This document shows positions 1 through 38,016 of a stretch of DNA of 44,491 bases, piece after piece (positions within the stretch are counted from its first letter, which is position 1; every line of letters begins with the position of its first letter). The stretch is from Chiloscyllium plagiosum. Its lineage: Eukaryota. The notes beneath the pieces are model-generated. The model did no database searches, was not told the DNA's origin, and was given only the letters and a program-made list of their open reading frames with translations. The stretch spans positions 3,916,832 through 3,961,322 of the forward strand of contig NC_057759.1 of assembly GCF_004010195.1 (NCBI RefSeq), written 5' to 3'. Both the position numbers and the translations under genes were made by a program.

Positions 1-2675
1 TGAATAAATGAGAAAGCTCTACTCATTGAATTAACACAAGCAGTTTGTTTCATTGAATGAATGTGTTAATCTCGACACTTAGATTGAATGAGAGAAGCGA
101 TAAGCATTGAATTAATATTTGCAGTCATTTCCATTGAATGAACGCGTTCAGTTTGTTTCACTGAATGAATGCGTTAAGTTCATTGCACTGAATGAATCAG
201 AGGCTCTCTTCTCATTCTATTAACATGTGCAGTAGCTTATTTACGGTAAGGTCGAGAAAAAGAAAAAAAAATGAGAGTGGCTCTACTCATTCAATGAACA
301 CGTACATTCTGTTTCATTAAAGGAATGTGCACACTTTGTTTCATGGAAAGAATGCGTTAATCTCGTGGCATTGAAAGAATCAGAAAAGCTCTACTCATTG
401 AATTAACACGAGCACTCTGTTTTATTAAATGAATGAATTAAGTTTGATGCATTGAATTTGTGAGAGAATCTCTACTCATTGAAGTAACACTGCATTCTAT
501 TTTATAGAATCAGGTCTTCATTGAATGAATGAATGCAATTGTATTCATAAAGAAAATGTGTTAATTTCGTTTCATTTATCGATGAAAAACTTTAGATACA
601 AAGAACCAATGATTGAAGTTTGATTCTTTCAATGCCACGAGATTAACGCATTCATTCAATGAAACAAACTGTGCACATTCCTTTAATGAAAAAAATGTAC
701 GTTAATTGAATGAGTAGAGACACTCACATTATTTTCATTTTCTCGAACTTAACGCAAATGAAGCCACTGCACATGCGAAAAGAATGAGTAGATAGCGTCA
801 CATTCATTCAGTGCAATTAGCTTAACTCATTCTATCAGTGAAACAAACTGCATTCCTTCCTTTATTCATTCAAAGAATCGAACATTATTCATTGATTCAA
901 TGAAAAGAACTTAACATCTCTATTTCATTCAATGTTTCAACCTTTACTCCTTCATTCGATGAAGCAAACTGTACGTTATATTTCAATGAGCAGAGATTCT
1001 TCCATTCACAGAATGCAAGGAGCATAGCACAGAATTAATGAACAAACTGCTCGCATTCATTCAATGTAACAGATTGCCCGTGTTTAATCAACGAGTAGAA
1101 ACTTCTCTCATTCATTCAAATTCATTCAACAAAACAAACTGCATGTGTTAATTCATTCAATGCCACGAAGTTTCTACATTGACTCAATGAAACAAACCGC
1201 ACACAATCATTCAATGACACAGACTGCACGTGTAAATTCACTGAGTAGAGCTTTCCTCAATTATTCATTGTCTTAAGCTTATCGAAATCATGCAATGAAA
1301 CAAACTGCATTCTTTCATTCCTTGAATCAAACTTCAATCATTGAAGTATCTGAGGTTTTTCCTCGATGAATGAAATGAACTTTACACATTTACTTTATGA
1401 ATCCAATTGCATTCATACATTCAATGAAGTCCTTGATTCTATAAGATAGACTGCAGTGTTACTTCAAGGAGTAGAGCTTCTCTCACAAATTCAATGTGTC
1501 AAGTTTTATTGATTCATTTAATGATGCAAAGTGCTTCAATTAATGAGCTTAACGCATTCATTCAATGAAACAAATTCCACACATTCATTCAATGAAATAT
1601 ATTGCACGTGTTCATTCAATGAGTAGAACATCTCTCTTTCATTCAATATATCAAACTTATCTCATTCATTCGATGAAGCAAACTGTACGTTTTATTTCAA
1701 TGAGCAGAGTTTCTTCCATTTATACAATGCAACGAGCATAACACATAGAATTAATGAAACAAACTGCACGCATTCATTCAATGAAAGAGGTTGCCCGTGT
1801 TTAATCAAACAGCAGAAACCTCCCTCATTCTTTCAAATTCATTCAGCAAAACAAACTGCATGTGTTAATTCATTCCATGCCACGAGGTTTATACATTGAT
1901 TCAATGAAACAAACCGCACGCAATCATTCAATGACACAGACTGCACGTGTAAATTCACTGAGTAGAGCTTTCCTCAATTATTCAATGTCTTCAGCTTATC
2001 GAAATCATGCAATGAAACAAACTGCATTCTTTCATTCCTTGAATCAAACTACAATCATTGGTTCAATGTATCTAAAGTTTTTCATCGATCAATGAAACGA
2101 ACTTAACACATTTACTTTATGAATCCAATTGCATTCATTCATTCAATGAAGACCTTGATTCAATAAAATAGACTGCAGTGTTACTGAGTAGAGCTTCTCT
2201 CATAAATTCAACGCATCAAACTTAATTCATTCATTCAATGAACAGAGTGCTCGTGTTAATTCAATGAGTAGAGCTTTTCTGATCTTTCAATGCCACGAGA
2301 TTAACGCATCCATTCAATGAAACAAACTGTGCACATTCCCTTAATGAAACAGAATGTACATGTTAATTGAATGAGTAGAGACACTCACATTTTTTTCATT
2401 ATCTCGAATTTAACGCAAACGAAGCTACTGCGCATGCTAAAAGAATGAGTAGAGAGCCTCTCATTCAGTGCAATGAGCTTAACGCATTCATTCAGTCAAA
2501 CAAACTGCGTTCGTTCAACTGAAATGACTGCAAATATTAATTCAATGCTTATAGCTTCTCTCATTTATTCAATGTGTCAATATTAACACATTCATTCAAT
2601 GAAACAGACTGCTTGTGTTGATTCAATGAGTGGAGTTTTCTCATTTATTCAATGTCTCGAGCTTAACGCTTTCAT
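1..2675. repeat. AT-rich satellite-like array built on a CATTCATTCAATGAAACAAACTG-type motif, with higher-order units and an internal inversion
   Basis: The motif recurs throughout. ~951-1545 repeats at ~1666-2260 (offset ~717). 1-626 is the reverse complement of ~2041-2651. Confidence 0.9.
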
Positions 2676-2797
2676 TAAATTTGCCCGTAGTGTTTGTGGC
2701 AGGGGTAATTGTAGGGAAATGGGTCTGGGTGGGTGCGCTTCGGATGGTCAGCTGTGGACTTGTCGGGCTGAAGGACTGTTTCCACACCAAGTAATTT
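2675..2797 (+). mobile_element. HE1-type SINE, 3' fragment
   Basis: GGGAAATGGGTCTGGGTGGGTGCGCTTCGG...GGGCTGAAGGACTGTTTCCACAC matches the 3' half of the SINE at 31991-32313. Confidence 0.8.
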
Positions 2798-2854
2798 AAA
2801 AAAAAAACTGCGGGGTGCGAGAGGTTTGGGGAAATGATACAGGAGAGCTCGAGC

Positions 2855-3235
2855 TCGAACGTTGTAGAATTCAATATTGAGTCCAGAAGGCTGTCGAGTT
2901 CCCAAGCACAAAATGAGGTGCTGTTCTTCCAGCTTGCCGTGAACTTTGCTGGAGCACTGCAGCAAGCCTGAGACAGAGATGTTGGCCAAGGTACAGGATG
3001 GTGTGTTGAAGTGGCAGGCAACTGAAAGCTCCAGGACATTTTTTCTAGACAGAATGTAGGTGTTCTGCGCAGTGGACACCCAATCTACACTCATTTAACC
3101 CCGCATCGAGAAGACCAAATGGCAGCTAGAAAAATGCACACAATCGCTTCTGAGGAGGGGTCACTAGACCTCAAATGTTAAGTCTGATTTCCCTCCACCA
3201 ATGCTGCCAAACCTGTGAATTTTCCAGCAATTTTT
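2855..3235 (-). mobile_element. Penelope-like element relic: GIY-YIG endonuclease C-terminus plus inverted pLTR piece
   Basis: Translation VACHFN...GLLQC...KLEEQHLILCLGTRQPSGLNIEF is typical of the PLE endonuclease end. A degenerate hammerhead-like CTGAGGA-GGGGTC..GACCT-CAAA lies at ~3150 (+). Confidence 0.8.
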
Positions 3236-3244
3236 GTTATTAAT

Positions 3245-3765
3245 TTCTACTTGTCAGTTTCTGTGCTGTAAACAGGAGTGTCATTATCAAACTGTACATG
3301 TCAATGTATGCGATTTGAAACAGGGGAGTGTTCCAATAAGTTTTGATGATGAGAATGTCGTTATCAGTCTTCCTCTGAGATGTCCTGCCACGTGCACATG
3401 TGTATGATTGACCAATCTGTCCCTGTTATATTCTGCTCTGTGTATCTCAGGATGGAGTTGCGAATCTCTATCTGTCAGCATCTTATTTATAAATGTGCAA
3501 ATGTATTAACCAGACTGTAGCTGCCAGTGTTTGCTATGTGTTAGTTTAGTTGTGTGTGGGTGCGCGCGTGCGCACACTTGTATATTTACGTATCATTCTT
3601 TCCCTTTCAGTTTCTGCAGAGTGAATATGTGAGAGCAGCTATCAATCGACACCTGTCAGTTTTTGTTATGTCCACATGAGTGTTTTGGAATTGATCTATA
3701 CTTGTCAGTTCCTGCTGTGTGACTGTGCAAGTACTCAATCAGTGCCAACTATTTTCAACTCTTTT
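3245..3765 (+). repeat. Degenerate ~49-bp minisatellite (copy 1)
   Basis: Recurring (T)ATCAATCTGTACCTGTCAGTTTCTGCTGTGTGAATATG-like units; same family as 34270-34400 and 38920-39770. Confidence 0.65.
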
Positions 3766-3789
3766 ATGTATGAAAGTTGCTTAATTCTC

Positions 3790-4010
3790 TGGCAGCGAAT
3801 AATATTCTAAGAGTCCAATCATCGCCAGGAATTTATGGTTAATTTTTCAGGAAAACCCATCTGGTTCACTAATGTCCTGTAAGGAAACTGTAATCCTTGT
3901 GTCTCCAGACCCACAGCAATGTGGTTGACTCATAACTACCCCCTGAGCAGTTAGGGATGGGTAATAAATACTGGCCTAGCCAGTGATGCCCTCATCCCAT
4001 GAATGAATTT
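3790..4010 (+). mobile_element. Second SINE family (family not assigned), 3' part
   Basis: AAAACCCATCTGGTTCACTAATGTCC...CAGACCCACAGCAATGTGGTTGACTC...TTAGGGATGGGTAATAAAT...CATCCCATGAATGAAT is shared with 11230-11560 and 22345-22560. Confidence 0.75.
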
Positions 4011-6182
4011 AGGAATTTAGGAAACAAAGAATCCTCTGTGACTGAGATTCATTCTGTGATAGTAGTTTTTAAGGGTATTGTGATTGGGCCTTAAACTCTT
4101 CTGCATTTAGTGATTTATGACAGAGTCACAGAAATGATACAGCCATTCAGCCCATTGTGTCTGCACTGGGACATGCTATTGTTCATCTGTTCTCCATACT
4201 AATTTCCACTAATTGTTGGGTGTATCACAAGGTAAATGCTAATGTGAGATTTGTTCTGCAGTATTCTGCCATTGGATAACTGTAGTGCCAGTTTGGTTTT
4301 GTATGCAACAGCATCAGGTGGAGTGTGTGAATCTCATTTTCTTTATACGTTGAGTTGTATTTGTTTGGTCCGAGTGTTAGATAAACTCGATCAATATTCA
4401 CTAACACTTTGTGTGTGAGGGATTAATGTTGATTCAATGTTTATCTTTGCCATGAATTTGAATGTTATTGTTTTCAGACTTTTTTAAAAAACATTTTGTG
4501 TATGCAGGAGTCTTTATCAGTTCCTGCTGGATTCTGTAAAATGTAACATCTATTACTAACTCAAGCGATTAATGGTTTGGTGTGTCAATTTATAACTGCC
4601 CATATTTGGAAATACCTGGATCTAAATTTCATTCTTTTATCCCTTTCACCATTAACTGGCTGAGTTTTCTGTTGTGCTGCCAATCTGTATCACTTTAAAG
4701 GAGCGATACTGGCCTATACCACACTGACAGTTTCTGTCTGTCTATCTCCTTATGTTTCCAGTTCTGCATGATCTGATGCACTGAGGAAGGTTTAATTCCT
4801 TATAAATCAGTGTTTCATCCATTAAAATGTATGGAAATGTTTCTGCAATACTCAGGCCCTCAACCAGAATGCGAGTGTGGATAAAGTCAGCACCAGGCCA
4901 ACAGTAAGAACAGAATTCAATCGATCAGTCTCTGATACTTGATACCAATATGGTCCTTATTCTTGGTTATTGTATCTCACAGTCGTTCAGTGTCATCTAA
5001 ATTGAAACATGTCACTTTTAGTAACTGCAAGCATAATTAATTGTTTAAACTTCTGCTACTTCACATGAATGAGGTTTTATTCATTGGCACTGGAGTCAGC
5101 TCCCGTCAGTGAAAGTGGATGTGTTTCTATGTCTGCTAATATTTGGCCTCGTACATGTAGTTGGATAATGTCCACAGCCTATATTCTTTAGTTTTAGATC
5201 CTCTCGGATCCACGGACAGGTGAACATGCAACACATTACAGCAGAAAATCATCTGTGCTTTTCTTCAGAATCAAGGGGAGAAAAGCAATAGACTTTTGTA
5301 ATTCTTATATTGCAGAATCTAACCAGGAACAGTGGGGATATCAAGGTCTGGTTTTCAGGATGCTATCATTTTTTGCACAGTGCTATACTTTACCAATGAA
5401 TTAATGATCAGTATTAACCGATTCAATTTGTAACTAAGTGAACACTTCAACTGCATTGCAACTGACTGAAGACAATGCTCCTTGTGCAGAAAAGAGAATT
5501 GGCTAATTCTATTTTATTTACCAAGCTGGTCAGGATCTGGTGCAAACCATTAGCAGTATTCTTGCGTTGCTCTCTGGTATGGCGGGGGAAAACAAAAGGT
5601 CTTTTATTTTCCACTATCGGTGAAGAATATTTAAACAGTCAAATTCAATTTAATGAACAATCAATCCTTGTTGGTTAAAATAAAGGAGCTGCTTGACAAA
5701 CGTATCAATTTTTCTTTCTTTCTGCACTGCTTTAAATAGTAATGATCTGATTCCATTGACTCCTTGACAAAACTATATCCTGATTCCTTTTGCAATAATC
5801 TTCCCAAACGTGTTTTTTAAAGAGAAGTCTTCTTAACTAAGAAGAATGGCACAGGAAATGGCAAACAAAGCGAAGAGAAAACAGGAGAGGCAAACGAAGG
5901 GATAAATAGTAGGTAGAAAGTTACAAAGCAAAATGTGCAGTTGGAATGATACATGAATTAGAAACCAATCGGGCCATCATGCACTTCATATCAATTTATA
6001 TTTCTGCCTCTACTTCGATAGGATTGGACAGTCAACAGTTCCCATTGAGCTACAGACAGGACACGTGCTGCTTCTCTGCTGTTTTTCCTCTTATATTGCT
6101 TTGACGTTCTATCTACTTTGCAATTTCTAGGACACTGGCAAAAATAATGACATATTTATTTCCATTCCCTTTTGTTTTCCAG

Positions 6183-6212
6183 TGAATCTTGCTCTCTTTG
6201 TGATCAGCCAAG
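6183..6212 (+). CDS. Candidate 30-nt internal micro-exon of the ITIM-receptor gene, (x)NLALFVISQ(G)
   Basis: Strong acceptor TTCCCTTTTGTTTTCCAG and donor AAG|GTAAGA. Read phase 1 to 1, it splices in frame to 8338. Confidence 0.5.
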
Positions 6213-6719
6213 GTAAGAGGGAACTGTATTTTTTGGATAAACATTTACAAGTCACAAGTCTTGCTATGAGTGACCTTTCATTGACCTTTTCCAAACATGC
6301 ATCAAATTCGACTTGATCCCAGTCTTCCTGATCAGGAGTTAGGGATATCCTCTGAAAGACACTGGAATCATTGTCAATCCTTCTCCCGTATGGGTGCCCC
6401 ACCAATTATAATGAAGACTAATAGCCATTTTTAACTTAGTCACATCCGACAGTGTCCACTCAGTAAATCTGTACCAGAGTTTAAATTCATCACAATACTT
6501 CAAATGAGCATGAGATTTAAAAGTTTGTGAAAATACGAAGTTATGATAATTTTGGAAGGGAGAATAGAATATTATTTAAACTACAGACAGCTGCACCAGA
6601 AATGGACTTGATCGGAACCGGAATTTGTGTGTGTGCCTGCATGAGAATGACAGTGGGGCATATATTTGGCATCCTTTCATCCTTATTTGAGTTTGACATA
6701 GCTATTTTTCACATAAAAC

Positions 6720-6895
6720 GTAGAACTGCGGATGCTGGAGATTGGAAACAAAGTTTGGAAAAGCGCAGCATGTCTGGCACTGTCTGTGGAGAGAGAAAGA
6801 GAAATTGAGATAACATTGAAGGTTATAAACACAGAAAGTGCTGGAACGATACAGCGGGTGTGGCAGCATCTGTGGAGAGAGAGAGAAAGCAATTT
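6720..6895 (-). mobile_element. PLE pLTR-like fragments (tandem partial copies)
   Basis: GAAAAGCGCAGCATGTCTGGCAC..TGTGGAGAGAGAAAGAGA appears twice; same motif at 13130-13230 and 20040-20275. Confidence 0.6.
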
Positions 6896-7009
6896 CTAAT
6901 TCATGATAAAGCGCTCAAGACGCATTTTCCAAAAGCTACTGCCTGCAGATTTGAAACGATAGATAAAATAGAAACATTGCATGTCAAATTGTTGCTCAGA
7001 AGAATAATT

Positions 7010-7321
7010 TTAGATTAGATTAGATTACAGTGTGGAAACAGGCCCTTCGGCCCAACAAGTCCACACCGACCCGCTGAAGCGCAAACCACCCATACCCCTA
7101 CATTTACCCCTTACCTAACACTACGGACAATTTAGCATGGCCAATTTACCTGACCTGCACGTCTTTGGACTGTGGGAGGAAACCGGAGCACCCGGAGGAA
7201 ACCCACGCAGACACGGGGAGAATGTGCAAACTCCACACAGTCAGTCGCCGGAGGGAGGAATTGAACCCGGTCTCTGGCGCTGTGAGGCAGCAGTGCTAAC
7301 CACTGTGCCACCGTGCCGCCC
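7010..7321 (-). mobile_element. Full-length HE1-type tRNA-derived SINE
   Basis: On -: GGCGGCACGGTGGCACAGTGGTTAGC (A box), GGTTCAATTCC (B box), (TAATC)n tail. Confidence 0.92.
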
Positions 7322-7963
7322 GATGCTTGTCAACAACCACAAGGGACATTGAACTGGCCTTGGCCTTATGCACAATCACATCTGTCTCTCAGAACACATT
7401 CTAGTCCTTGTCTCAGGGATGAACAGTCAAAGGTTACGTTCTACCGGACCATCTTCCTGCTCTCATTAGAATGCAAGAGAGAGAAAGAGAGGACTGGTAG
7501 GTGGTTTAATTTAAGGGTCATCATGCGTCTTAAGAGGGGAGAGTTTCAGAAGGAGAGTTCTTCAGGGTAATTTCAGCTGGTGTGGGAATTTTACCCTTGC
7601 TGTTAGCAAGGATTAGCATATAATGCATTGCAAAAAAAACATCTATCCAGCTAAATTAACTACGCTTAACTATAGCAGCAGACGGCAGTTAAAACCCAAA
7701 TGTATGCGTTATGCATAGGTCACTCCTGTCTTCCATGTACAACAACTGAGCAAGTGACGCAAAGGTTGATAAGCTTAAAACAGCCTGTTGACTGACCCAC
7801 AATCTATAAGCTGACACTCTGTCGTATTGATATGAAAACAAATTGTATGATTGAGACAGAGTGAGTTTTCTAAATGGGATATTATGAAATGTCTGGATTG
7901 ATTGAAGGGAGAATTCAGAAAGTGTTGCACTGATATTTTTTACAAAGTTGACTAAAACACAGA

Positions 7964-8222
7964 GGGGCGGCACGGTGGCTCAGTGGTTAGCACTGCTGCC
8001 TCATAGTACCAGAGTCCAGTTCATTCTCCCTGTGCCTGCGTGGGTTTCCTCCCACAGTCCAAAGATGTGCGGTTTGGTGAATTGGCCATGCTGAATTGTC
8101 CATAGTATTAGGTGAATGAGTTCGAGGGAAATGGGTCTGGGTGGGTTACTCTTCGGAGAGTCAGTGTGGGCTGGTTGGGCCGAAGGGCCTGTTTGCACAC
8201 TGTAGGGAATATAATCTAATCT
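7964..8222 (+). mobile_element. HE1-type SINE with internal deletion
   Basis: A-box head GGGGCGGCACGGTGGCTCAGTGGTTAGC, B-box region deleted, tail ATAATCTAATCT. Confidence 0.88.
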
Positions 8223-8337
8223 GTACTTTCAAAAGAATAAACTACATCTTTGATGTTGATCAGCCCTCAATGGGTCCAGATCAAATCGTTAATGCCTGCA
8301 AAACGTTTTTTCCCCTCTCATTCTGTTTTATTTTCAG

Positions 8338-8372
8338 GCAACAGTATTGGTTTATCCTCCGATGGGAAGAAG
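8338..8372 (+). CDS. 35-nt cytoplasmic exon of putative inhibitory receptor, (G)NSIGLSSDGKK
   Basis: Acceptor TTCTGTTTTATTTTCAG and donor AAG|GTATGT. Phase 1 to 0, the phase needed to join the terminal exon at 10340. Confidence 0.65.
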
Positions 8373-8499
8373 GTATGTTACATTGTAAATCTAAATAGAC
8401 CACAGCTATTGTCAAAAAAAGTGTAAATAGATGTATACCCTGCATCCCCAACGTAAAATGTCAACTGTTGATTCATTTCAGATTAATCAAAGGATACGT

Positions 8500-9310
8500 C
8501 ATAGGAAGAACGATCAGGCCCTTCCAGGCTACGCTCCCCATTCAATAGGATCATCCAACTCAGTCCCCTGTCCCCCCACGTTACCCCTTTAGCCCTTAAA
8601 AATTCTATCCAACTCCTTCTTGATAAACATTCAATGTTCCGGCCCCGACCACTTTCTGTGGTAGAGAATTCCTCAGGATCCCTGCTTACTGAGTGAAGAC
8701 ATTTCTCCTCCTCTCTCTCGTATCCTGTCTCCTTTAGACTGTGAGTCTCTGGTTCTGCACTTCCTCCGATTCATCAGGATCATCCTTCCTGTGTTTACCT
8801 TGTATAGGCCTCTCAGAACTTTGCAGATTACTATTAGATTACCCTTCATTCCTCTAAGTTCCAATGTGTCAAATGCTAACTGATCCCAAGCATCAGTCTA
8901 TGAAACCTTTGTTGCAATCCTTCCATAGCCAGAAAATCCTTTATCAGATCAGGAGATCACAAACTGTACACGCAATACTCCCGTGTGTGCTCTCACCCTG
9001 TCCAATTGCAGCAAGACATTCCTGCTCCTGGACTCAAATCCTCTCACTATGAAGGCAACATCCTATTTACCTTCCTCACTACCTGCTGTTCCTGCAAAGC
9101 TCACTTTCAGCAATTTATTGCATATGCAATCTTACCCAGTGCATTGCTATTCAGATAATAATCACATTTCTGTATTTGATCTCAACTGAATAACATCACG
9201 CCAATCCACATTAAATTGCATCTGTCTTACATTGGCCTACTCACTCAATATGTCTATGAAGCATCTCTGAATTCTCCTTCTCTGCTTCCCTTTCCTCCTA
9301 GCTTTGTGTC
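8500..9310 (-). mobile_element. CR1-type LINE 3' relic
   Basis: Degenerate RT C-terminal/3' UTR sequence, e.g. LRGMKGNLIVICKVLRGLYKV. Confidence 0.75.
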
Positions 9311-9494
9311 TAACTTTAAACACAGTAGAAAATAAACATCAATGCTTTCTCAATAGAGTAGATCAAACAGTGTTTCTCATTCTCTTACAACGCCCAGGAA
9401 CAAGTCGGTTTCAATATTGTTTTTCCCAGTTACTTCTTATACATTATTAAAGCATCACTGAATCTTGACGCTAAATCGTTGTCAGTCCATTGTC

Positions 9495-9865
9495 ATTTGC
9501 ATCCAATTGGTAGCTGCAGTGTGTACCATCTATAAGATGCACTGTAGAAAGTCACCAAAAATCCTTAAACAGCAACTTCCAACCCACAACCACTTCAAGG
9601 TCGAAAAACAAGGGCGGCAGATGGGATCACCACCCCTTGCAGGTTCCCTTCTGAGCCACTCAGCAACCTCTGGAAAAACATCAACCATTCCTTCAGTATC
9701 GCTGGGTCATAATGCTGGAACTCCCTCCCGAAGTGAATCTACAGCACGGGGGACTACAGTGGCTCAGGAAGATAGCTCACCGTCACATTCTCAGTAGAGG
9801 AACTAGAGGCAGGACAACAAATGCTGGGCTCTGCTAGAGATGCAGATGTCCCGTAAATGAATGGA
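9495..9865 (+). mobile_element. LINE 3' end whose tail is shared with the second SINE family
   Basis: GCAGTGTGTACCATCTATAAGATGCACTG...GGACAACAAATGCTGGGCTCTGCTAGAGATGCAGATGTCCCGTAAATGAAT resembles the tail at 3950-4010. Confidence 0.6.
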
Positions 9866-9879
9866 AAAAAGATTTTAAG

Positions 9880-10090
9880 CCCCTCTGCCTTCTCTGCTCC
9901 AAAGAAAACAACCCCAGCTTTTCCAGCTGCTCTTCATCACTGAAATGCTCCATCCCAGGCAACGTCTTTGCGAATCTCCTCTGAACCCCCTCCAGTGTAT
10001 CACATCCTTCTAATAGTGCAGAGATGATAACTGCACACAATGCTCCAGCTATGGTCTCCCCAAAGTCCTGTTCCACTCCAACGTCATCTT
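9880..10090 (-). mobile_element. CR1-type LINE RT C-terminal fragment
   Basis: LEGVQRRFAKTLPGMEHFSDEEQLEKLGLFSLEQRRQRG. Confidence 0.85.
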
Positions 10091-10339
10091 CCCGCTTCTA
10101 TAAATTATATGGCACACCATAGGAGCAGGTAGGACTTGAAACATATCCTCCTGGTTCAGATGCAGGGACATTACCATTGTGCAACTAGCTTCCTAACTCG
10201 CAGTCCCAGAACTGCCTGCTGGTGATTCTCATTTTCCCCTGATACTGAATTCCACCTGTACCCCGAGTGACCTCTCCGTCCCCTTCAGCTTCCTGCTCCC
10301 ACTCAGTACCCATTTCATTTCAATATCATTCAACTGCAG

Positions 10340-10459
10340 GATGCCAAGACTGACCCTGATGATTATTGTATCACATACGCCACACTGAACCTCAGTGGAC
10401 ACTCGCAAGAAGAAAACGGAGCAGATGGGAACATTTACGCGAATATTCCACGCAACTAA
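10340..10459 (+). CDS. Terminal coding exon of an ITIM-bearing (inhibitory-type) receptor: DAKTDPDDYCITYATLNLSGHSQEENGADGNIYANIPRN*
   Basis: Acceptor ...ATCATTCAACTGCAG (phase 0) and an open frame to TAA at 10457-10459. Canonical ITIM ITYATL plus a C-terminal NIYANI tyrosine motif. Confidence 0.8.
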   Translation, partial: DAKTDPDDYCITYATLNLSGHSQEENGADGNIYANIPRN

Positions 10460-11229
10460 GAAGCAAGAAGTCAGGCTGTGTGGGGGAGGGGTGTTCGTTC
10501 GATTCTATACACCTTCTGGTGAAGCGGTACAATGTAACTCCTGTGTACAGATAACAAACTTGTGAACTTGATGATGGAAACCTTGTTTCACAACACTTTT
10601 GACGCCACTCATTTTCTTTCAGAGAAGTTATTTTTACGCCAGTGTGACCATCAATCTGTTCTGGATCTCACTGGGTTTTGTATTTGACAAACTATTTTGG
10701 CTGTTGGGTATCTTTGGAAATTTAATATTTGCCTCTTCTTTGCTCTCATGTACATATCTGAGGATTAAGCTTTGAGTTTGTTCCACGTTTAAGGGGATGA
10801 ATGCACCACCTGTCCCCTTCTATGAATGAGCTATTTGGAATCTCTCCCATTCTGACCAACTCAGAACAGAAATTGTCAGACGGTCCTGACAGGTGGGAAA
10901 TAGTAAAACAGAAAACAGGCAGTTTTAATGGTTAGTTTTTAGGGTGAATGTCTCCTGGAGCATGGGTCATGAATTTGCAACTTCTGGCCCCACGGACAAA
11001 ATGTACCTGAGCCACAATCCACTGAAGATCCAGATGGAGGAAGCACAGCTGATGGAGAGTCTCCATGGTGAAGAGATCTCTCAACAATCCGAAACCCCTG
11101 CTGGATGCTTTGGCTTGGCCTTCTGAGATTCCGAACACCATTGTTGTAATATATGTTCTGTAAACGCCATGCTTATGGGGATGGGGTTATCACAAACCTT
11201 CAGAGCAGCAGACTTGAATTTTGAATACG

Positions 11230-11562
11230 GTGCGATGGCCTGGTGGTGTTATCCGTGGACTATTAATCCAGAGATCTCTTAGATATTCTAGGGACCCGGG
11301 TAAATCCCACCATGGCAGATGGTGGATTTTAATATCAACAAATTTCTGGACCAAAGAGGCTGATTGTGACCAATAACCAATTGTCAGTAAAACCCATCAC
11401 GTCCTTTAGGGAAGGAAACTGCCATTCCTTTTCTGGTCAGGCCTACATGTGACTCGAAATCCACAGCAATTCGATTGATTCTTAACCACCCTGTGGGCTT
11501 TTAGAGATTGGTAATAAATGCTGACCTATCCGGTGGTGCCCTCCTCTCATGAATAAAATAAA
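11230..11562 (+). mobile_element. Second SINE family, near full length
   Basis: tRNA-like head (TGGCCTGGTGG...GGGTAAATCCCACC), core GTCCTTTAGGGAAGGAAACTGCC, tail ATGAATAAAATAAA. Confidence 0.75.
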
Positions 11563-14912: not shown

Positions 14913-16730
14913 CAGGCTGCCAGAGGTAGTGGTGGAAGCGAGTGCAGTTTTGTCATTTCAGAAACATTTAAGCATGTACATGAAAGGGATAGGTTTGGAA
15001 GAATATAGACCAAACACAAGTTCATGGGACTAGTTCAAAATGTGAAAACTGGGCACCACTGACAATTTGGCCCAGAGGAACTGTTTCCATGTTGTAAAAA
15101 TATCTGACACTATGTCTCTAACCTCTCACATACTCATAATCTGTCTCTGTCTCTGTCACTCACACAGACACACACAGACACACACACAGTCACTTTCTGA
15201 CACACGCACACACACACACTCTGCTTCACACACACGCTCTCAACCAAAAACACACTCTGTCTCACGCAAACTCTCTCTCACACACACAGTCTCACATCCC
15301 TCCCTCCCTCACACACAGACAATCTGTCTCACACATACATTCTCTCAAACAAACGCACACTCTGTCTCACACACACTCCCCCTCTCTCTCTCTCTCTCTC
15401 ACACACACACGTTCTATCTCAACTAAACACACACATTCTGTCTTACACATAATCTCTCCCTCTCTCACACACACACATTGTGTCACACATTCTCTCTCTC
15501 ACGCACACAGTATCACACTCTCTCACACAAACACACTCTGTCCCACACACACTCTTTCTCACACACAGACTCTGTCTCTGTCTCTCTCATACACACTTGT
15601 TCCTCTTTCACACACGTTTACACCGAAACTTACTCTCATCAACTCTCTATCACTTTTTGTCTCACATACACTCTCACAGACACAGTTTATCCCCTCATCC
15701 CGAATTGCCCCAGCGGCAGGGAGTTGCATAAGTCTGCAGCACAGAAAAAGGCACATCGGCCCATCGCGTCTGCGTGTCAATAGTTACCACTTAACTATTG
15801 TCTAATCCCATTTCCCCAGCATTTGGTTCATTGCCTTGGCATCATTAGTGAACATATACATCCTTGTTCAATGTGATCAGGGTTTCTTCATGGTGAGAGG
15901 GGAGAGATAAGAAAGAGTCCAGTGTCCGAATTCTTTCCAACAGAGGGCAGTGAGTGTCAGGAACAGGCTGCCAGAGGTAGTGGTGGAAGCGAGTGCAGTT
16001 TTGTCATTTCAGAAACATTTAAGCCTGTACATGAAAGGGATAGGTTTGGAAGAATATAGACCAAACACAAGTTCATGGGACTAGTTGAAATTGTGAAAAC
16101 TGGACACGACTGACAATTTGGCCCAGAGGAACTGTTTCCATGTTGTAAAAATATCTGACACTATGTCTCTAACCTCTCACATACTCATAATCTATCTCTG
16201 TCTCTGTCTCTGTCACTCACACAGACACACACAGTCACTTTCTGACACACGTGCACACACACACTCTGCTTCACACACACGCTCTCAACCAAAAACACAC
16301 TCTGTCTCACGCAAACTCTCTCTCTCTCACACACACAGTCTCACATCCCTTCCTCCCTCACACACAGACACTCTATCTCACACATACATTCTCTCAAACA
16401 AACGCACACTTTGTCTCACGCACACACCCTCTCTCTCTCTCACATACACACACACACGCTCTGTCTCAACTAAACACACACATTCTGTCTCACACATAAT
16501 CTCTCCCTCTCTCTCACACACACACATTGTGTCACACATTCTCTCTCTCACGCACACAGTGTCACACTCTCCCACACACACTCTGTCTCGCACACACTCT
16601 TTCCCATACACACTCTGTCTCTGTCTCTCTCATTCACACTTGTTCCTGTCTCCCACACGTTTACACCCAAACTTACTCTCATCAACTCTCTATCTCTTTT
16701 TGTCTCACATACACTCTCACAGACACAGTC
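14913..16730 (+). repeat. Direct duplication, offset 1051 bp (CR1 3' end plus CA/CT tract)
   Basis: CAGGCTGCCAGAGGTAGTGG at 14913 and 15964; identical ORF starts at 15067 and 16118. Confidence 0.9.
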
Positions 16731-18520
16731 TGTCTCACTCACACACTCACACAGTCACACACTGTGTCTCACATGCTCTCTCTCATACACACCTAATCCC
16801 TCTCTCACACACACTTAACATACACACATACATTCTCTCACACACATACTCTCTCACAAAGAATTCCGTTCACACAATGTCTCAAACACACTCTGTCACT
16901 CTGTCTCACACATAAAGTGTCACTGACACGCACACTATCTCACTCACTCTCTCTCTCACAGACACACATACACGCACACACACACAGTCTGTCACACACA
17001 CGCTGTTATATACACTCTCTCATACAAGCACACTGTCACACACGCTATCCTTCACATATAGACTGTTTCTCTCTCACACACACTTTTTCCTCTCTCCCAC
17101 ACTTTCCACTCATCCTGACACGCATACTTACTCTCATTAACTCTATTTTTATTTGTTTCACGCACACTCTCTCACAGACACACTCTGTCTCTCACACACA
17201 CCCAAACACACACTGTGTCTCACACACTCTCTCACACACGTAGTCTCTCTCTCTCTAAAACATGCACACACATTCACACATACACTCTCTCACACAGACT
17301 CTCTCTCTGACACACACATTCTCTCACAAACAATCCCGTTCACACAATGTCTCAACCACACTCTCATACATACATTCTCACACATAAATCTCTCACACAC
17401 CCACAATGTCTCTCTCACACACATACACAGTGTCACACACACAGTCTCTCTCTCTCTCATACATACACTCTCTCACACAGTCTCACACACACGCACTCTC
17501 TCTCGCACACATACTCACTCACAAACAATCCGGTTCTCACAATGTCTCAAACACACTCTCTCACACACAAAGTCTCTCAGATAAGTATCACACCCACCTA
17601 CAATGTCTCTCAATCTCTCTCGCTCTCACACACACACGTACACAGTGTCGCACATAATCTCTCTCTCAGACACATACACATAGTGTCACACACATATTGT
17701 CTCACACGCACACTTTGTCTCATACACTCTGTCACACCCACAAGCACACAGTATGTCACACAGACTCTCTCTCTCACACACGGTCTCTCTGACACACGTA
17801 CACACACATACTCTCTCACACATGGTTTCTCTCTCTCTGTCACACACTCATATATACACACACTATCTTTCTTTCGCTCTCACACACACACAGTCTATCT
17901 CACACAAACATACACTCTCTCACACACAGTCTCACACACACGCTCTCTTTCTCTCACACACAAGCTCTCACAAGCAATCCCGTTCTCACAATGTTTCAAA
18001 CACACTCTCACTCTCACACACATACATACACAGAGACTGTCACACACACAGTGTCACACATACTTTCTCTCTCAGACACAAAGACACACACAGTCACGCA
18101 CACATACTCTCGCACGCTCTCTCTCACACACGTTTCTCTCTCTCTGTCATGCTCACACGCTCACACATACATTTCTCTCTCTCTTTCACACACACACTCT
18201 GGCACACAAACTTTCTTCTCAGCCACACTCTCCTTCTCACCCTCACACACATACACACACGCACACTTACTCTTATCAAATTTCGCTCTCTTTCTGTCTC
18301 AGGCATACGCTCTCACACAGACACACTCTGTCTCTCTCTCTCTCTCACACACTCTGTCTCACAGACTCTCTCATATACACATTCTGTAGCATGCACACTT
18401 ACTCACACACATTCTGTCCCTCATGCACACTCACACCCACCCACACACAGACGCTCTCTCAGAAGTCTGTGCTCTTTCTCACTTTACTCCACACTTCCTC
18501 ACGCACCCTCTCTCACAGAG
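15120..18520. repeat. Long compound (CA)/(CT) microsatellite, interrupted at ~15690-16170
   Basis: Imperfect CACACA/CTCTCT mosaic, source of the His/Thr/Ser/Leu pseudo-ORFs. Confidence 0.95.
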
Positions 18521-21372: not shown

Positions 21373-21643
21373 ATTAGATTACATTACAGTGTGGAAACAG
21401 GCCCTTCGGCCCAACAAGTCCACANNNNNNTACCCCTACATTTACCCCTTACCTAACACTACGGGCAATTTAGCATGGCCAATTCACCTGACTTTGGACT
21501 GTGGGAGGAAACCGGAGCACCCGGGGGAAACCCACGCAGACACGGGGAGAATGTGCAAACTCCACACAGACAGTGTGGAGGCGGAAATTGAACCCGGGTC
21601 TCTGGCGCTGTAAGGCAGCAGTGCTAACCACTGTGCCACCGTG
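21373..21643 (-). mobile_element. HE1-type SINE containing an assembly gap (N at 21425-21430)
   Basis: Near-identical to 7010-7321 apart from the gap and a small deletion. Confidence 0.9.
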
Positions 21644-24606: not shown

Positions 24607-25446
24607 AACCTTGCATAAATAAAACTAACATTCTTTACAGACTGTTGTTTCTTGCAAACATAACATGTGTCCATTCTAATTGCCCAGAGGGACAGTTAGG
24701 ATGAACATATATTATTTGGGTTTGGAGACACAGCTCGGCTGCACCAGATTAAGTCCTTCCCCTAAAATATAATAATAATCCAAGGCAATGGGCTGAGAAG
24801 TGCGGCAGCTGTAAATTAATAACAGTATTAGGCTGTACAGATTCAGTGGGCCGAAGGGCCTCTCACACCACATATAATTGGATGACAAGCTTTGGAGTTT
24901 CCTGAATGTGTATGGGGGAGAGAGAAGGAGGAGCTTGGGAGAAGGTACTGGTGATTAACAACTAGCAGAAAGTGCACTTTGTAACCAATCTTCTGAAGAA
25001 ATATTAGAAATAGCAAGTGAATCGATAACCTTGCATAAATAAAACTAACATTCTTTACAGACTGTTGTTTCTTGCAAACATAACATGTGTCCATTCTAAT
25101 TGCCCAGAGGGACAGTTAGGATGAACATATATTATTTGGGTTTGGAGACACAGCTCGGCTGCACCAGATTAAGTCCTTCCCCTAAAATATAATAATAATC
25201 CAAGGCAATGGGCTGAGAAGTGCGGCAGCTGTAAATTAATAACAGTATTAGGCTGTACAGATTCAGTGGGCCGAAGGGCCTCTCACACCACATATAATTG
25301 GATGACAAGCTTTGGAGTTTCCTGAATGTGTATGGGGGAGAGAGAAGGAGGAGCTTGGGAGAAGGTACTGGTGATTAACAACTAGCAGAAAGTGCACTTT
25401 GTAACCAATCTTCTGAAGAAACATTAGAAATAGCAAGTGAATCGAT
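24607..25446 (+). repeat. Near-perfect 420-bp tandem duplication
   Basis: 24607-25026 equals 25027-25446, with one difference noticed (T25002 vs C25422). Confidence 0.95.
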
Positions 25447-27790: not shown

Positions 27791-28090
27791 ATGGGGCTGC
27801 TGTCTTGCTGGAGGGAGAGGGAGGGGTCGGAGTTGGATTTTTATCTGAGGGTCACTACACATCAGGCACAGGATGAGCAGGAGAAGGGGAGTCGTTCATG
27901 GTAACATCAGCCAGTGTCAGGAGCGAACCTATGTATTTGCATCATTCCGTATTAACAAACTGTCTGCCCAGCTAACTGCCCGCCAGTGTAATGTGGAACT
28001 TGCCAAGGCAGAAAATGGAAACAAGTGTAAGGGAACATCGAGGATTTAGAGCCAAAGCAATAATGGCCATTTTACTTGTCAGTATCAAAC

Positions 28091-28186
28091 CGTTTGTAAA
28101 ATGTTCGACAATGATGACCACCATCATAATGAGCACGAAGACACTGAGGCAGAGATGCACCAAAGTCACAGCAGTATGGTCTCGTT
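28091..28186 (-). CDS. Transmembrane exon of an LRC/FcR-like activating-type receptor: (E)RDHTAVTLVHLCLSVFVLIMMVVIIVEHFTN
   Basis: Acceptor TTTTTCTCCTTGTGCAG (phase 1). The DHT..xLxH-hydrophobic-EH pattern parallels NKp46 [27 protein letters not shown]. The 3' boundary is uncertain (donor after 28091 or 28076, or read-through to the stop at 27972). Confidence 0.72.
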
Positions 28187-28449
28187 CTGCACAAGGAGAA
28201 AAACCCAGTTTAGATCGCTTAGTGTTGGGGAACTGACCAGATTGACAGAAATGATTGAAGAGCAGAGAAGCACCGAACTCCTCATTGAATATCCAAATAA
28301 CCTTGGAACGGTTACAATGAAAGCCAACGAGTTCGGATCAGAAGGGAGGAGTAAGAGTGTAACTGTGTTGTCCACAAAAGCAAAGGAAGGGAGGGTTAGA
28401 ATTTGCCTGAATTGGTCAATGGAAGGGATTTCCAGAAACCAGATGCATA

Positions 28450-29460
28450 CAAAAAAACAAGAGGCCCTTCAGCCCATCAAACTTGTACTACAGAAACGTA
28501 CACTCCTGCCCAAATATCCACTGTAGGCCCATTTCCTTGAAAGTGAAGAAACCTCAAGTGGATATTTGTGTACTTCTTCAAGATAGTGAGGTTCCCTGCA
28601 TCCCAGGCAGTGCATTTCAGACATTACTGTGCTCTGGGTGATAAATAGATCCTTAAATGCCTTCTAAGGCGCCAGTCTTTCACATTAAGTTGATACCACC
28701 CCTTGTTTTTGGCCCTTCGATTCAGGGGAACAGCTACTTCCTATCCCCATATCCATGCCCCTCAATATTACACATCTTTACCAAACCTCCACTTTTTCAG
28801 TTCCAAAGAAAACATCTTGCTGAATCTCCTCTGTAAACCGACCGCTACCCACCCCCCAACCAAAGTAACCACATTTTTCCTACAGTGCGGAGACTGGATC
28901 TGTACGCAGTGGCAGTTGAGGTCACTTTTTTATCGCTGGATTGTAGGAGCTTTAGGGGTGATCTTATGCAGGTTTACAGAATCATGAGGGGCATATATAA
29001 GGTGCATTGGCAAGGTCCTTCCCTCAGTAGAATGTGAGGACTGCCGATGATGGAGGTCAGAGTCAAAAAGTGTGGAAAAGCACAGCAGCTCAGGCCGTAT
29101 CCGAGGTCCAGGAAAGCGGAATCTCAAACTAGAGGGGATAGGTTTAAGGTGAGGGGAAAATACTTAAAAGGCAATTGTTTCTCATTGAGGGTGATGTGTT
29201 TATATAGAATGAGCTGCAGTTTAAGTGGTAAAGGTGGGTACAATTATAACATTTAAAAGATCTTGATCGATACATGCTGAAAATGTGTTGCTGGAAAAGC
29301 GCAGCAGGTCGGGCAGCATCCAAGGAGCAGGAGAATCGACGTTTTGGGCATGAGCCCTTCTTCAGGAAAGGGCTCGATACATGGCTAGGAAACGTTAAAA
29401 GGGCATGGGGACCAAATGCAGGTAAATGAGATTGGGTCAGTTTGGGATGGCTGGCCAGTG
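28450..29460. mobile_element. Nested CR1 fragments (both strands) with PLE insertions
   Basis: CR1 3' motifs GGTGATCTTAT..AGGTTTACAGAATCATGAGGGGCAT and AGAGGGGATAGGTTTAAGGTGAG interrupted by pLTR-like pieces. Confidence 0.7.
29277..29373 (-). mobile_element. 97-bp PLE-derived insertion with 10-bp TSD and mutated hammerhead
   Basis: TSD TCGATACATG (29267-29276 and 29374-29383); CUGAAGA-A-GGGC(UCAU)GCCC-AAAA-CGUC at 29334-29369. Confidence 0.8.
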
Positions 29461-31063: not shown

Positions 31064-31339
31064 AGGATATTCTCACAAGAATGCTATTACTGTAGGGTGT
31101 TTTATGGGTCGATGTGGAAGTTTAGCATCTGTACTCCCCATCATCCTCCTGTCTATCAGCCTCTATGATGTAAGTCTTCCCTTTGAACTCTTCGATCATG
31201 TTGTTTACGATCCAGTTATAGTTCGTCGCACGTACCTCCCGACCGGCATCGCAGCTAAGAGTGATCCGGTCGCCCATGAACAATCTGTCCCACATTGACT
31301 CCATCGTTAGTACGGGTAATCCAGTCTCCACTGAGGAAC
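31064..31339 (-). pseudogene. C2-type Ig-domain exon of an Fc receptor-like (D1-type) protein with one in-frame stop
   Basis: GSSVETGLPVLTMESMWDRLFMGDRITLSC..NYNW..DDGEYRC*TSTSTHKTPYSNSILVRIS. Cys pair with 41 residues between, conserved W and DxGxYxC. Phase-1 acceptors (exon start 31339 or 31330) and phase-1 donor T|GTGAGG. TAA at 31124-31122. Confidence 0.82.
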
Positions 31340-31567
31340 CTAATCCGTACAAAAACACGCACAGCCACAAGGGAAAGAACTGAAATCAGCGTGTTGCAGT
31401 AGCTTGCCACTCTGACAACTCAAGCTGTCTTGGGTTGATGAGTGGTAAGTAACATTCCCACTTCACACATCGCAGGCAATTACTATCTCCAATAAGAGAG
31501 AATTGAACCATCACCCTCTTGACATTCAATTGTGTTAGCATCTCTGAATCGCCTCAATATCAATATG

Positions 31568-35853: not shown

Positions 35854-37556
35854 GTGATATTGTTGCTCCTTTAACAAGCCTGTAAAATACACAGGCTCTG
35901 AAAAGTCTGACTTGATGGGTTTTAGGGACATTTTAATTATAGCTCATAGATAATGCCTCAGGCAAAAGGCTTCCACATTTTTCAAAAGAACACTTGTACA
36001 ATGAAAGCGGAGTGTCCCAGTTTTCCCAGCTCAGCTTTTCTCTGGTTTGATTTAGTTTTTGGCTGTCTGGCTAATGACTGAAAGTAGTCAGGCAGTTGAA
36101 AAAGCTGCTGAACCCAAAGAAGCCAGTCTATGCTGGAACTCTCTCTCTCTAACATCCCTGCTTTAAGACCCTGTGTTTGATTTTATCTTTTTGTGCCAAA
36201 GGGTGTTTGTGGGAACTATTGCAAGCGTTGGGAACAGCATCATTAAGTTGGTATAATCTGTAGGCTTTTCGGATAGGTAAAGTTATTTAGTATCCTGTTC
36301 TCTTTTAAGGCATTTGTTTCATTTGATAATCTTGTAAATCAGTTCTGTTTTGTTTAAAACTACGTGGGTGGACCAGCTACATCATTCCTGGAATATCCGA
36401 GTACACCTGCCTAAACCAACTAGCAAAGTTAGGATCCTGGCTACTTGAAATGTTTTGAGGGGGTCTGTAGTTCTGATTTGGGATTAGGGTTGTTGAACTT
36501 GAAGGCAGCGAGTGGTAAGTGTTAGTGTCTTTTGTTCCGGGTTTTGAATTCAGTTGGTTTAAACAGTGCTTGGGATAGCAATGGCTCTTTCAGTCATCAA
36601 GAGTTTTCTGTGGATGGAAGAAGTGATTTTGGGCCTCTTACAAAAGGTGATTAAGGGTAAGCTGCTGGAAATAGCAGACAAGCTGGAATTGAGTCTGTGT
36701 CCTTTCATGTGGAAAGGAGAGATAATTACAGCAGGAGCTCAGCATTTCCATTTGTTGGAAACACCATCAGAATCTTCTGAGATGGCTGACATTCAATCGA
36801 AAATGCAGCAACATGAGTTAGAAGCACAAGACAAGGAAAGGGCAACAGAAATGACATCTTTTGAAATATGATTAAATGGAGAAGAGAGAGCGGGGAGAAA
36901 GAGAAAAGAAAGGAAGGAAGATATGGAGTTTGAACTTTGGAAATTGGCACTTAGACAGGAGTTCAAAAATTCACTTCCTGAAGCAGTGAAAACCTATGTG
37001 GAAGATCAGAGAGTTAAAACAGCAAGATTGGCATCTGAAACGCCTGATGGTTATGAGTTGTTCGAAGTTTTGGCTTCTAAAACCAATTTCAATCCATGAG
37101 AGATAGAAGTTGAAGATAAGAGAAATCCTCACCTGGAAAGGAAACGATAGATCTCAGTGAATGTCGTAAGAATGACTTATCACAAGTTAAAAAGGAAACA
37201 CTTGAAGGGGAAAGAGAAGTTAAAAAGCTCTGGTGTTTTCCCTGCAATAAAGTAGGCTATGCGAAATCACAGTGTTGGTGGGTTCGGAAAAACACTGGGA
37301 AACCAGATATAGGAAACAGGATAAGCCAGTGAAATTTGTTGAGGTGGTAACTGAAAGTACAATGGAGGCTCGAAAGCTGCACCAGAATGTACAAGCTGAT
37401 CCGAGGTGACAGATCTTGTCAAACCATCCACCTCTGAAGGTAATGTTTACCTGCATAGGAGGATCAGGTAAAGTGGTTACAATATTAAGAGATACAATCT
37501 GTGATGCTGAAAGATGAGGAGATATGCACCTCTGAAGGACTATTGCCAGAAAAGTC
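35854..37556 (+). mobile_element. Gypsy (Gmr1-like) LTR retrotransposon relic: putative 5' LTR, gag, protease start
   Basis: Gag start MALSVIKSFL (36581); SCAN-like EFKNSLPEAVKTYVEDQRVKTA (36959); zinc knuckle CFPCNKVGYAKSQC (37234); VTILRDT protease motif. LTR limits are approximate. Confidence 0.8.
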
Positions 37557-37903
37557 AATCAATCAATAGAAAGCAGGAGACAACAGCTTCGCTTCACTTG
37601 GAAGTTGCCACTGATGATGTTACCTAGCCAGGTTTTGAAACGACTAGATATCAAACCTACAGCTCAGCAAGCGAACATACACCATAACCCCCCCTATCCC
37701 CCTGCTTGTGCCAGTTTCTAGACTATTGCCAGAAAAGTCAATCAATCAATAGAAAGCAGGAGACAACAGCTTCGCTTCACTTGGAAGTTGCCACTGATGA
37801 TGTTACCTAGCTAGGTTTTGAAACGACTAGATATCAAACCTACAGCTCAGCAAGCGAACATACACCCTAACCCCCCCTATCCCCCTGCTTGTGCCAGTTT
37901 CTA
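37538..37903 (+). repeat. 183-bp tandem duplication carrying a third PLE-type pLTR with degenerate hammerhead
   Basis: GACTATTGCCAGAAAAGTCAATC at 37538 and 37721; CCA-CTGATGA-..ACCT(AGCC)AGGT..GAAACG at 37608 and 37791. Confidence 0.9.
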
Positions 37904-38016
37904 GCTAATCAATAGTTGTATAATATCCTAACAATTTATTGCTTTGGAAGTGACTCATTATTTCATTCTGTAACTGCCAGTTTATTGTTTCTAATCTTGT
38001 ATTTACTCAGTTTCAG

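Follow-up and report, generated by a model that had tools for sequence, protein, structure and literature searches.

Among the 44,491 nucleotides of Chiloscyllium plagiosum DNA analyzed here, which are referred to as the window, two short exons together encode a cytoplasmic tail with tyrosine motifs, which raises the question whether they form the end of a working immune receptor or what is left of a broken one. The first-pass annotation of this DNA favored an unannotated, ITIM-bearing and possibly functional receptor. Judging from the exons and splice sites in the window and from related proteins, we give a little more than an even chance to the reading that the locus is a recently and internally deleted copy of a shark Fc-receptor-like (FCRL) gene, in which case it would most likely be an ordinary broken duplicate and not a hidden working receptor.

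The two tail exons, their splice sites, the intact frame, and the motif ITYATL were all present in the sequence as the first-pass annotation had claimed (Table 1). Sequence inspection revealed that the phases of exons 8338-8372 and 10340-10459 are compatible and that the frame stays open through to the TAA. Moreover, protein alignment established that the proteins of relatives run through both exons in identical register, which supports the 8372/10340 splice on basis of these relatives rather than of reads from the locus. The terminal exon shares 25-31 of its 39 residues with ten long relatives, a set that includes close isoforms as well as orthologs and thereby represents fewer genes than rows, and the relatives share 20-38 of these 39 residues among themselves (median 27, 45 pairs). 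The smaller exon has 7-10 of 12 residues identical in 10 of 11 relatives, and the eleventh, P0020, reads intron at this position and is without the distal tyrosine in the alignment. Homology extends into the flanking DNA, with the intron read-through tail of isoform P0052 aligning at 8250-8282 (8/11, E 0.004) and at 8327-8365, and the aberrant C-terminal extension of P0004 aligning at 11009-11110 (73.5% over 34 residues). Further downstream, AATAAA occurs at 11513 and 11552, in both cases within a repeat.

Table 1. Position and properties of the features recognized in the window.
Feature	Position	Strand	Properties
Probable first leader exon (S1-like)	5543..5576	+	Hydrophobic; ends in phase 1 at donor CTG/GTATGG; moderately supported
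Second leader mini-exon (S2), FCRL family	6183..6212	+	30 nt; phase 1-1; NLALFVISQ
Gap between S2 and tail	6213..8249	+	Expected place of Ig, transmembrane, and first tail exons; inferred deletion or misjoin point lies within
Intron end before penultimate exon	8250..8337	+	Homologous to the intron that a C. plagiosum paralog has before its corresponding exon
Penultimate cytoplasmic exon	8338..8372	+	35 nt; phase 1-0; acceptor ..TTTTCAG; donor AAG/GTATGT
Terminal coding exon	10340..10459	+	39 codons plus TAA; acceptor ..CTGCAG
ITIM ITYATL	10370..10387	+	Agrees with the ITIM consensus given in PMC12250417; the same hexamer occurs in 7 of 13 distinct tails
Distal tyrosine motif NIYANI	10430..10447	+	Y-x-N-I type
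3' flank	11009..11110	+	Homologous to sequence that follows the stop codon in a C. punctatum paralog
Orphan Ig exon, second FCRL subfamily	31065..31340	-	In-frame TAA at 31124; GG in place of acceptor AG

Decay of the tail was assessed by column conservation, which revealed changes in 1 of 16 invariant and 9 of 34 variable columns; intact relatives that were left out in turn had 0-3 changes per 16-19 invariant columns, a range that includes the tail. The lack of visible decay implies that either the loss was recent or the gene is whole. No Pfam match was obtained in the terminal exon, and there was no RNA run among the 17 listed sequencing runs that match 10340-11100. Four of these 17 runs, all from one study, contain 0.77-0.87 of the words of this segment, and they were not counted as support because they may be the assembly's own source.

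The family to which the tail belongs was approached by several protein searches. The terminal exon gave seven candidates, four of which matched at E 2e-11 to 2e-10; these four proteins are all from Chiloscyllium punctatum, and three of them bear the name Fc receptor-like protein 2 or 5. In a full HMMER scan, eight matches were obtained (best E 9e-11), including four from sharks (C. plagiosum, Stegostoma, and a partial C. punctatum model); the other four (P0017 and P0021-P0023) were dismissed as chance, having 32-57% identity over multiple stretches, one with a bacterial name and three unnamed. A search with the tail of one relative retained 7 of 1,476 candidates and added Rhincodon and more C. 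plagiosum genes. Both exons correspond to the last two exons of RefSeq-annotated FCRL proteins in Chiloscyllium, Stegostoma, and Rhincodon, and the tail frame is kept in related sharks, which is the conservation on which the first-pass annotation had made its reading depend. The relatives P0027 and P0037, which are Ig_2/Ig_3 arrays according to Pfam, have human FCRL5 (PDB 9loc) as their best solved-structure match (E 1.7e-65 and 2e-72, respectively), and in this PDB search with two tail relatives FCRL4, CEA, and Fc gamma RI followed far behind. On such best-match evidence the tail exons appear to descend from FCRL / FcR-like genes, and with genuine exons, a consensus ITIM, and FCRL homology the earlier assignment to the cytoplasmic tail of an inhibitory-type receptor holds. 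A split leader and an ITIM tail are shared with human FCRL5, FCRL4, and Fc gamma RI, whereas the FCRL5 match runs via the ectodomains of the relatives, which are absent from this copy, and implies no single human ortholog.

The carpet-shark relatives in RefSeq (XP_072422740, XP_072422997, XP_043539724, XP_043539735, XP_043539714, XP_048379850, and XP_048477059) are named 'Fc receptor-like protein 2/5', 'PECAM-like', or 'Fc gamma RI-like' in the source. They share with this locus the last two exons in register, the same ITIM, the distal Y-x-N-I, and the 30-nt second leader exon, but in addition possess Ig domains and, as a rule, a TM helix along with two earlier tyrosine motifs (LEYAVV and LVYSEV types), none of which is present in this copy. 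PECAM-1 identity, which the database names suggest, is not supported, as no PECAM-1 entry occurs among the listed PDB matches. By best PDB match, many RefSeq 'PECAM-like' shark models (among P0018-P0054) are FCRL relatives, and the 'pecam1' of shark B cells (PMC11372145) might be such a relative as well. The protein searches with the terminal exon and with the tails of relatives returned no protein identical to this tail. The term unannotated is thus appropriate for this copy, which is without a protein record in the searches, and not for its family, which is known and annotated in RefSeq.

The accessible text of a 2014 survey (PMC4016189) reports no FcRL in shark genomes, and that of a 2026 review (PMC13337447) repeats the absence of FCRL genes in cartilaginous fish. 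In the accessible parts of two other papers, a 2024 single-cell study (PMC11372145) presents fcrl-named genes in bamboo-shark B cells, and PMC6795676 cites a 1988 paper on a shark IgM Fc receptor. No dedicated study of a shark FCRL cluster was found in the literature searched, which consisted mostly of sources other than subscription journals. Whether sharks possess FCRL genes is a matter for a proper phylogeny and not a discovery of the present work, as genes with such names are already found in RefSeq and in PMC11372145.

The ITIM on its own is chance-level evidence, and it is homology that makes the tail real; the six frames of the window contain 150 ITIM-like hexamers, two of which are accompanied by a second tyrosine motif and a stop. 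A tandem ITIM suited to SHP-1/2 had been proposed, of which the proximal half stands: ITYATL agrees with (I/V/L/S)xYxx(L/V/I). The distal NIYANI, with Asn at -2, fits neither the ITIM nor the ITSM (TxYxxV/I) consensus as worded in the accessible text of PMC12250417; this -2 residue is Asn in 10 of 13 tails and Ser in the other 3, which belong to the other subfamily, and Y-x-N-I is kept in all 13 distinct tails. The tyrosines of the terminal exon are its residues 9, 13, and 33, which puts the distal tyrosine 20 residues from that of the ITIM, instead of the 21 given before. The sequence pY-x-N is the consensus for the SH2 domain of GRB2. According to the accessible text of PMC13071153 and PMC12250417, FCRL1 binds GRB2 and c-Abl SH2 via Y281ENV, with which the shark tail has the Y-x-N-hydrophobic motif in common; Y281ENV is membrane-proximal, whereas the Y-x-N-I of the shark tail is C-terminal, and the likeness is one of motif only. 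One ITIM plus one probable adaptor site would fit this tail better than a tandem ITIM. A possible likeness to the tails of PZR and BTLA was put aside after full-length FCRL relatives had turned up.

The next exon of the family upstream of the tail is the second leader exon, which starts approximately 2.1 kb before it. Compared with the leaders of six relatives, this stretch took first place among the 88,798 nine-codon stretches of the two strands; AG and GT lie exactly at its 30-nt bounds, its donor has 8/9 consensus positions, and 7 of 9 residues are identical to P0037. A cruder earlier test had ranked it second of 232, after a candidate with a poor acceptor. Moreover, this 10-residue block is the sole difference between the RefSeq isoforms P0049 and P0054. 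The accessible text of PMC2413239 describes FcR-like genes as having a signal peptide split over two exons of 30/21 bp, and the second exon has the length of 30 nt here, the call of the first being weaker. The S1-like stretch was the best of the 6,150 ten-codon stretches within 1-6180 when compared with the first ten residues of six relatives, and its donor (6/9 consensus) lies one codon later than theirs. It has no in-frame ATG (GTG at 5540), both ATGs in 5401-5576 are out of frame, and the true first exon could sit outside the window. S2, the 35-nt exon, and the terminal exon constitute one open frame (phases 1-1 and 1-0). Upstream of the leader, two small plus-strand exon candidates with fair splice sites (4856-4903 and 5198-5219) may be 5' untranslated exons.

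A transmembrane segment and an ectodomain had been expected upstream of the tail. However, when 10 relatives served as tblastn queries, no exon of this subfamily for an Ig domain, the TM segment, or the earlier part of the tail was detected in the window (E<=0.05), and the only matches were to a minus-strand Ig exon at 31 kb. Neither FcR-type Ig domains (D1-D5) for this copy nor an exon for a TM helix that would put the tail in the cytosol was found in the window, including the 8.3 kb of upstream DNA visible, and the sole hydrophobic stretch is the leader; the suggestion that the gene may be functional thereby loses the exons of this subfamily on which a receptor would be built. Compared with five relatives, 637-898 residues (about 640-900 codons) are missing, and the corresponding gap of the relatives contains 5-8 Ig exons, a TM exon, and at least two tail exons. 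Self-blast revealed two repeat copies in 6213-8249 (about 7010-7320 and 7965-8222), which we take to be SINE-like, and the GC content changes from 0.375 to 0.437 across the gap. The intron homology at 8250-8337 places the join within 6213-8249; an extension of this homology to about 7950 was rejected, with scores of 18-19 and best matches elsewhere.

The preferred reading of an internally deleted copy is based on the combination of a leader exon and a tail on the same strand, from the same family and in compatible phase, on the rank of S2 together with its exact splice bounds, and on the absence from the window of any Ig, TM, or earlier-tail remnant. It is further supported by the lack of an in-frame ATG in the S1-like stretch, by a second broken FCRL piece 20 kb off, by truncated or degenerate relatives in the databases (P0037 isoforms and P0020), by the failure of the searches to return a protein identical to the tail, and by the FcR-like gene fragments that are also reported in the accessible text on Xenopus (PMC2413239). 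In the simplest history, unequal recombination within a repeat-rich tandem cluster would have removed the middle of the gene, and recently enough that splice sites and motifs are undecayed. Against this reading, the tail displays no clear decay, with both splice sites and both motifs intact; the call of S1 is weaker than that of S2, so the true ATG exon may be outside the window; and the assembly of the window shows signs of imperfection, with only 8.3 kb of DNA visible upstream.

In a rival reading, the tail would belong to an intact, unannotated FCRL receptor, as in the first-pass annotation, with its Ig, TM, and first tail exons upstream of the window and a stray leader fragment in an intron of more than 8.3 kb. 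The undecayed tail, an identity to relatives that resembles the identity among these relatives, and an intron end before 8338 of the matching paralogous type are consistent with such a gene, but a second event would be needed to place leader exons of the same family, with an 8/9 donor and compatible phase, in the intron, and the searches returned no gene model with this tail; we consider an intact gene unlikely. The signs of imperfect assembly bear on a reading that is about as unlikely, a misjoin via a repeat that would connect the 5' end of one FCRL gene with a 3' end from this or a different gene, the real gene being whole. The multi-copy cluster, the repeat copies inside the 2-kb gap, and, in other parts of the window, the run of N and the nearly perfect tandem pairs argue for it, as does the GC shift, which a real deletion would give as well; yet 6213-8337 holds no N, and the repeat copies of the window are about 79-91% alike, which is too unlike for easy collapse, while closer copies may exist elsewhere in the genome.

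It is very doubtful that the locus is an expressed and selected mini-gene without Ig domains. Upstream exons would then provide the start codon, and either the former leader would stay uncleaved and anchor the product in the membrane, with the ITIM/YxN tail acting as an inhibitory adaptor that needs no ligand, or the peptide made of leader and tail would be secreted. Leader and tail are indeed open in frame, and a chain via 4856-4903 and 5198-5219 yields an open frame of 94 residues, in which one stretch of 19 residues has a mean hydropathy of 2.1. However, 205 of 8,820 possible upstream chains are open, which is chance level, and rescue of the frame by an upstream ATG was rejected on this count. 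In addition, this hydropathy is like that of the leaders of relatives (1.3-2.1) and not of their TM helices (2.4-3.0), the net charge is 0 on both flanks and gives no push to a cytosolic tail, and the protein searches with the terminal exon returned no such short protein from any shark. That the deletion itself made a new expressed gene, i.e., an Ig-less FCRL derivative with its signal peptide as anchor for an ITIM + Y-x-N tail, is most improbable; if true, a ready-made inhibitory adaptor of the LAT/PAG/SIT type would have arisen from the two ends of a receptor gene, and this is the only reading of wider interest.

If the deleted copy is transcribed, the phases 1-1 and 1-0 would join leader to tail in frame; as S1 is seemingly without an ATG, probably no protein is made. 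In any protein that is made, the leader would most likely direct the tail to the secretory pathway, out of reach of Src-family kinases and SH2 proteins. By established topology, tyrosine motifs in the secretory pathway cannot signal, and a tail located there, as envisaged for this copy, could not do so either. In the intact parent receptor, ligand or co-ligation with the B-cell receptor would lead to tyrosine phosphorylation as in the mammalian FCRL2-5, after which the ITIM would be expected to recruit SHP-1/2 or SHIP, and the distal Y-x-N-I probably an adaptor of the GRB2 type, by analogy with the family.

Xenopus XFL and mammalian FcR clusters share a birth-and-death pattern with 1-2 exon fragments and pseudogenes. 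For example, the accessible text of PMC2413239 describes gene fragments of 1-2 exons on Xenopus FcR-like scaffolds and names misassembly as an equal option, and that of PMC4016189 describes Fc gamma RIB/RIC pseudogenes in the mammalian FcR cluster; a leader-plus-tail remnant is, by contrast, not described in the accessible text of either. In C. plagiosum, the paralog of the P0037 cluster has a full ectodomain, and all its 11 isoforms are without both terminal exons. This cluster is the mirror image of the present locus, whose leader mini-exon it matches most closely; the idea that it hides an isoform with this tail was rejected (0/11 members). The locus itself is of little import, being one more piece of a birth-and-death immune-receptor cluster, and it adds to the evidence for an expanded FCRL cluster in carpet sharks, in which ITIM tails occur together with the family-typical split leader.

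The second FCRL piece in the window, the Ig exon at 31065-31340, matches Pfam Ig_3 with E 2.8e-6, below the curated cut-off, and shares 73-74% identity with proteins of Hemiscyllium and C. punctatum; no companion exon or leader exon was found for it in the window. The annotated proteins related to it have VTYASL and xxYQNI motifs at their C-terminal ends. A C. plagiosum protein named 'histone H4-like' (P0015, XP_043539666) consists of 57 residues of this type of FCRL Ig exon followed by histone H4; it is probably a gene-model chimera, which hints that the FCRL cluster adjoins a histone cluster. Near 28 kb, a plus-strand open frame of 158 codons (28050-28526) has an Ig-like-looking GHFTCQY start and no match to FCRL relatives, and neither of the two ORFs in this region, including this one, had a Pfam match. 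Finally, the window contains two tandem pairs, 24607-25446 (420 nt x2, 99%) and 37538-37904 (183 nt x2, 98%), which are possibly assembly artefacts, 6 N near 21426, an AT-rich degenerate 27-nt minisatellite with larger duplications inside (1-2650), a 780-nt duplication at 14913-16729 (92.6%), and a long degenerate CA/CT-rich tract at 15100-18400.
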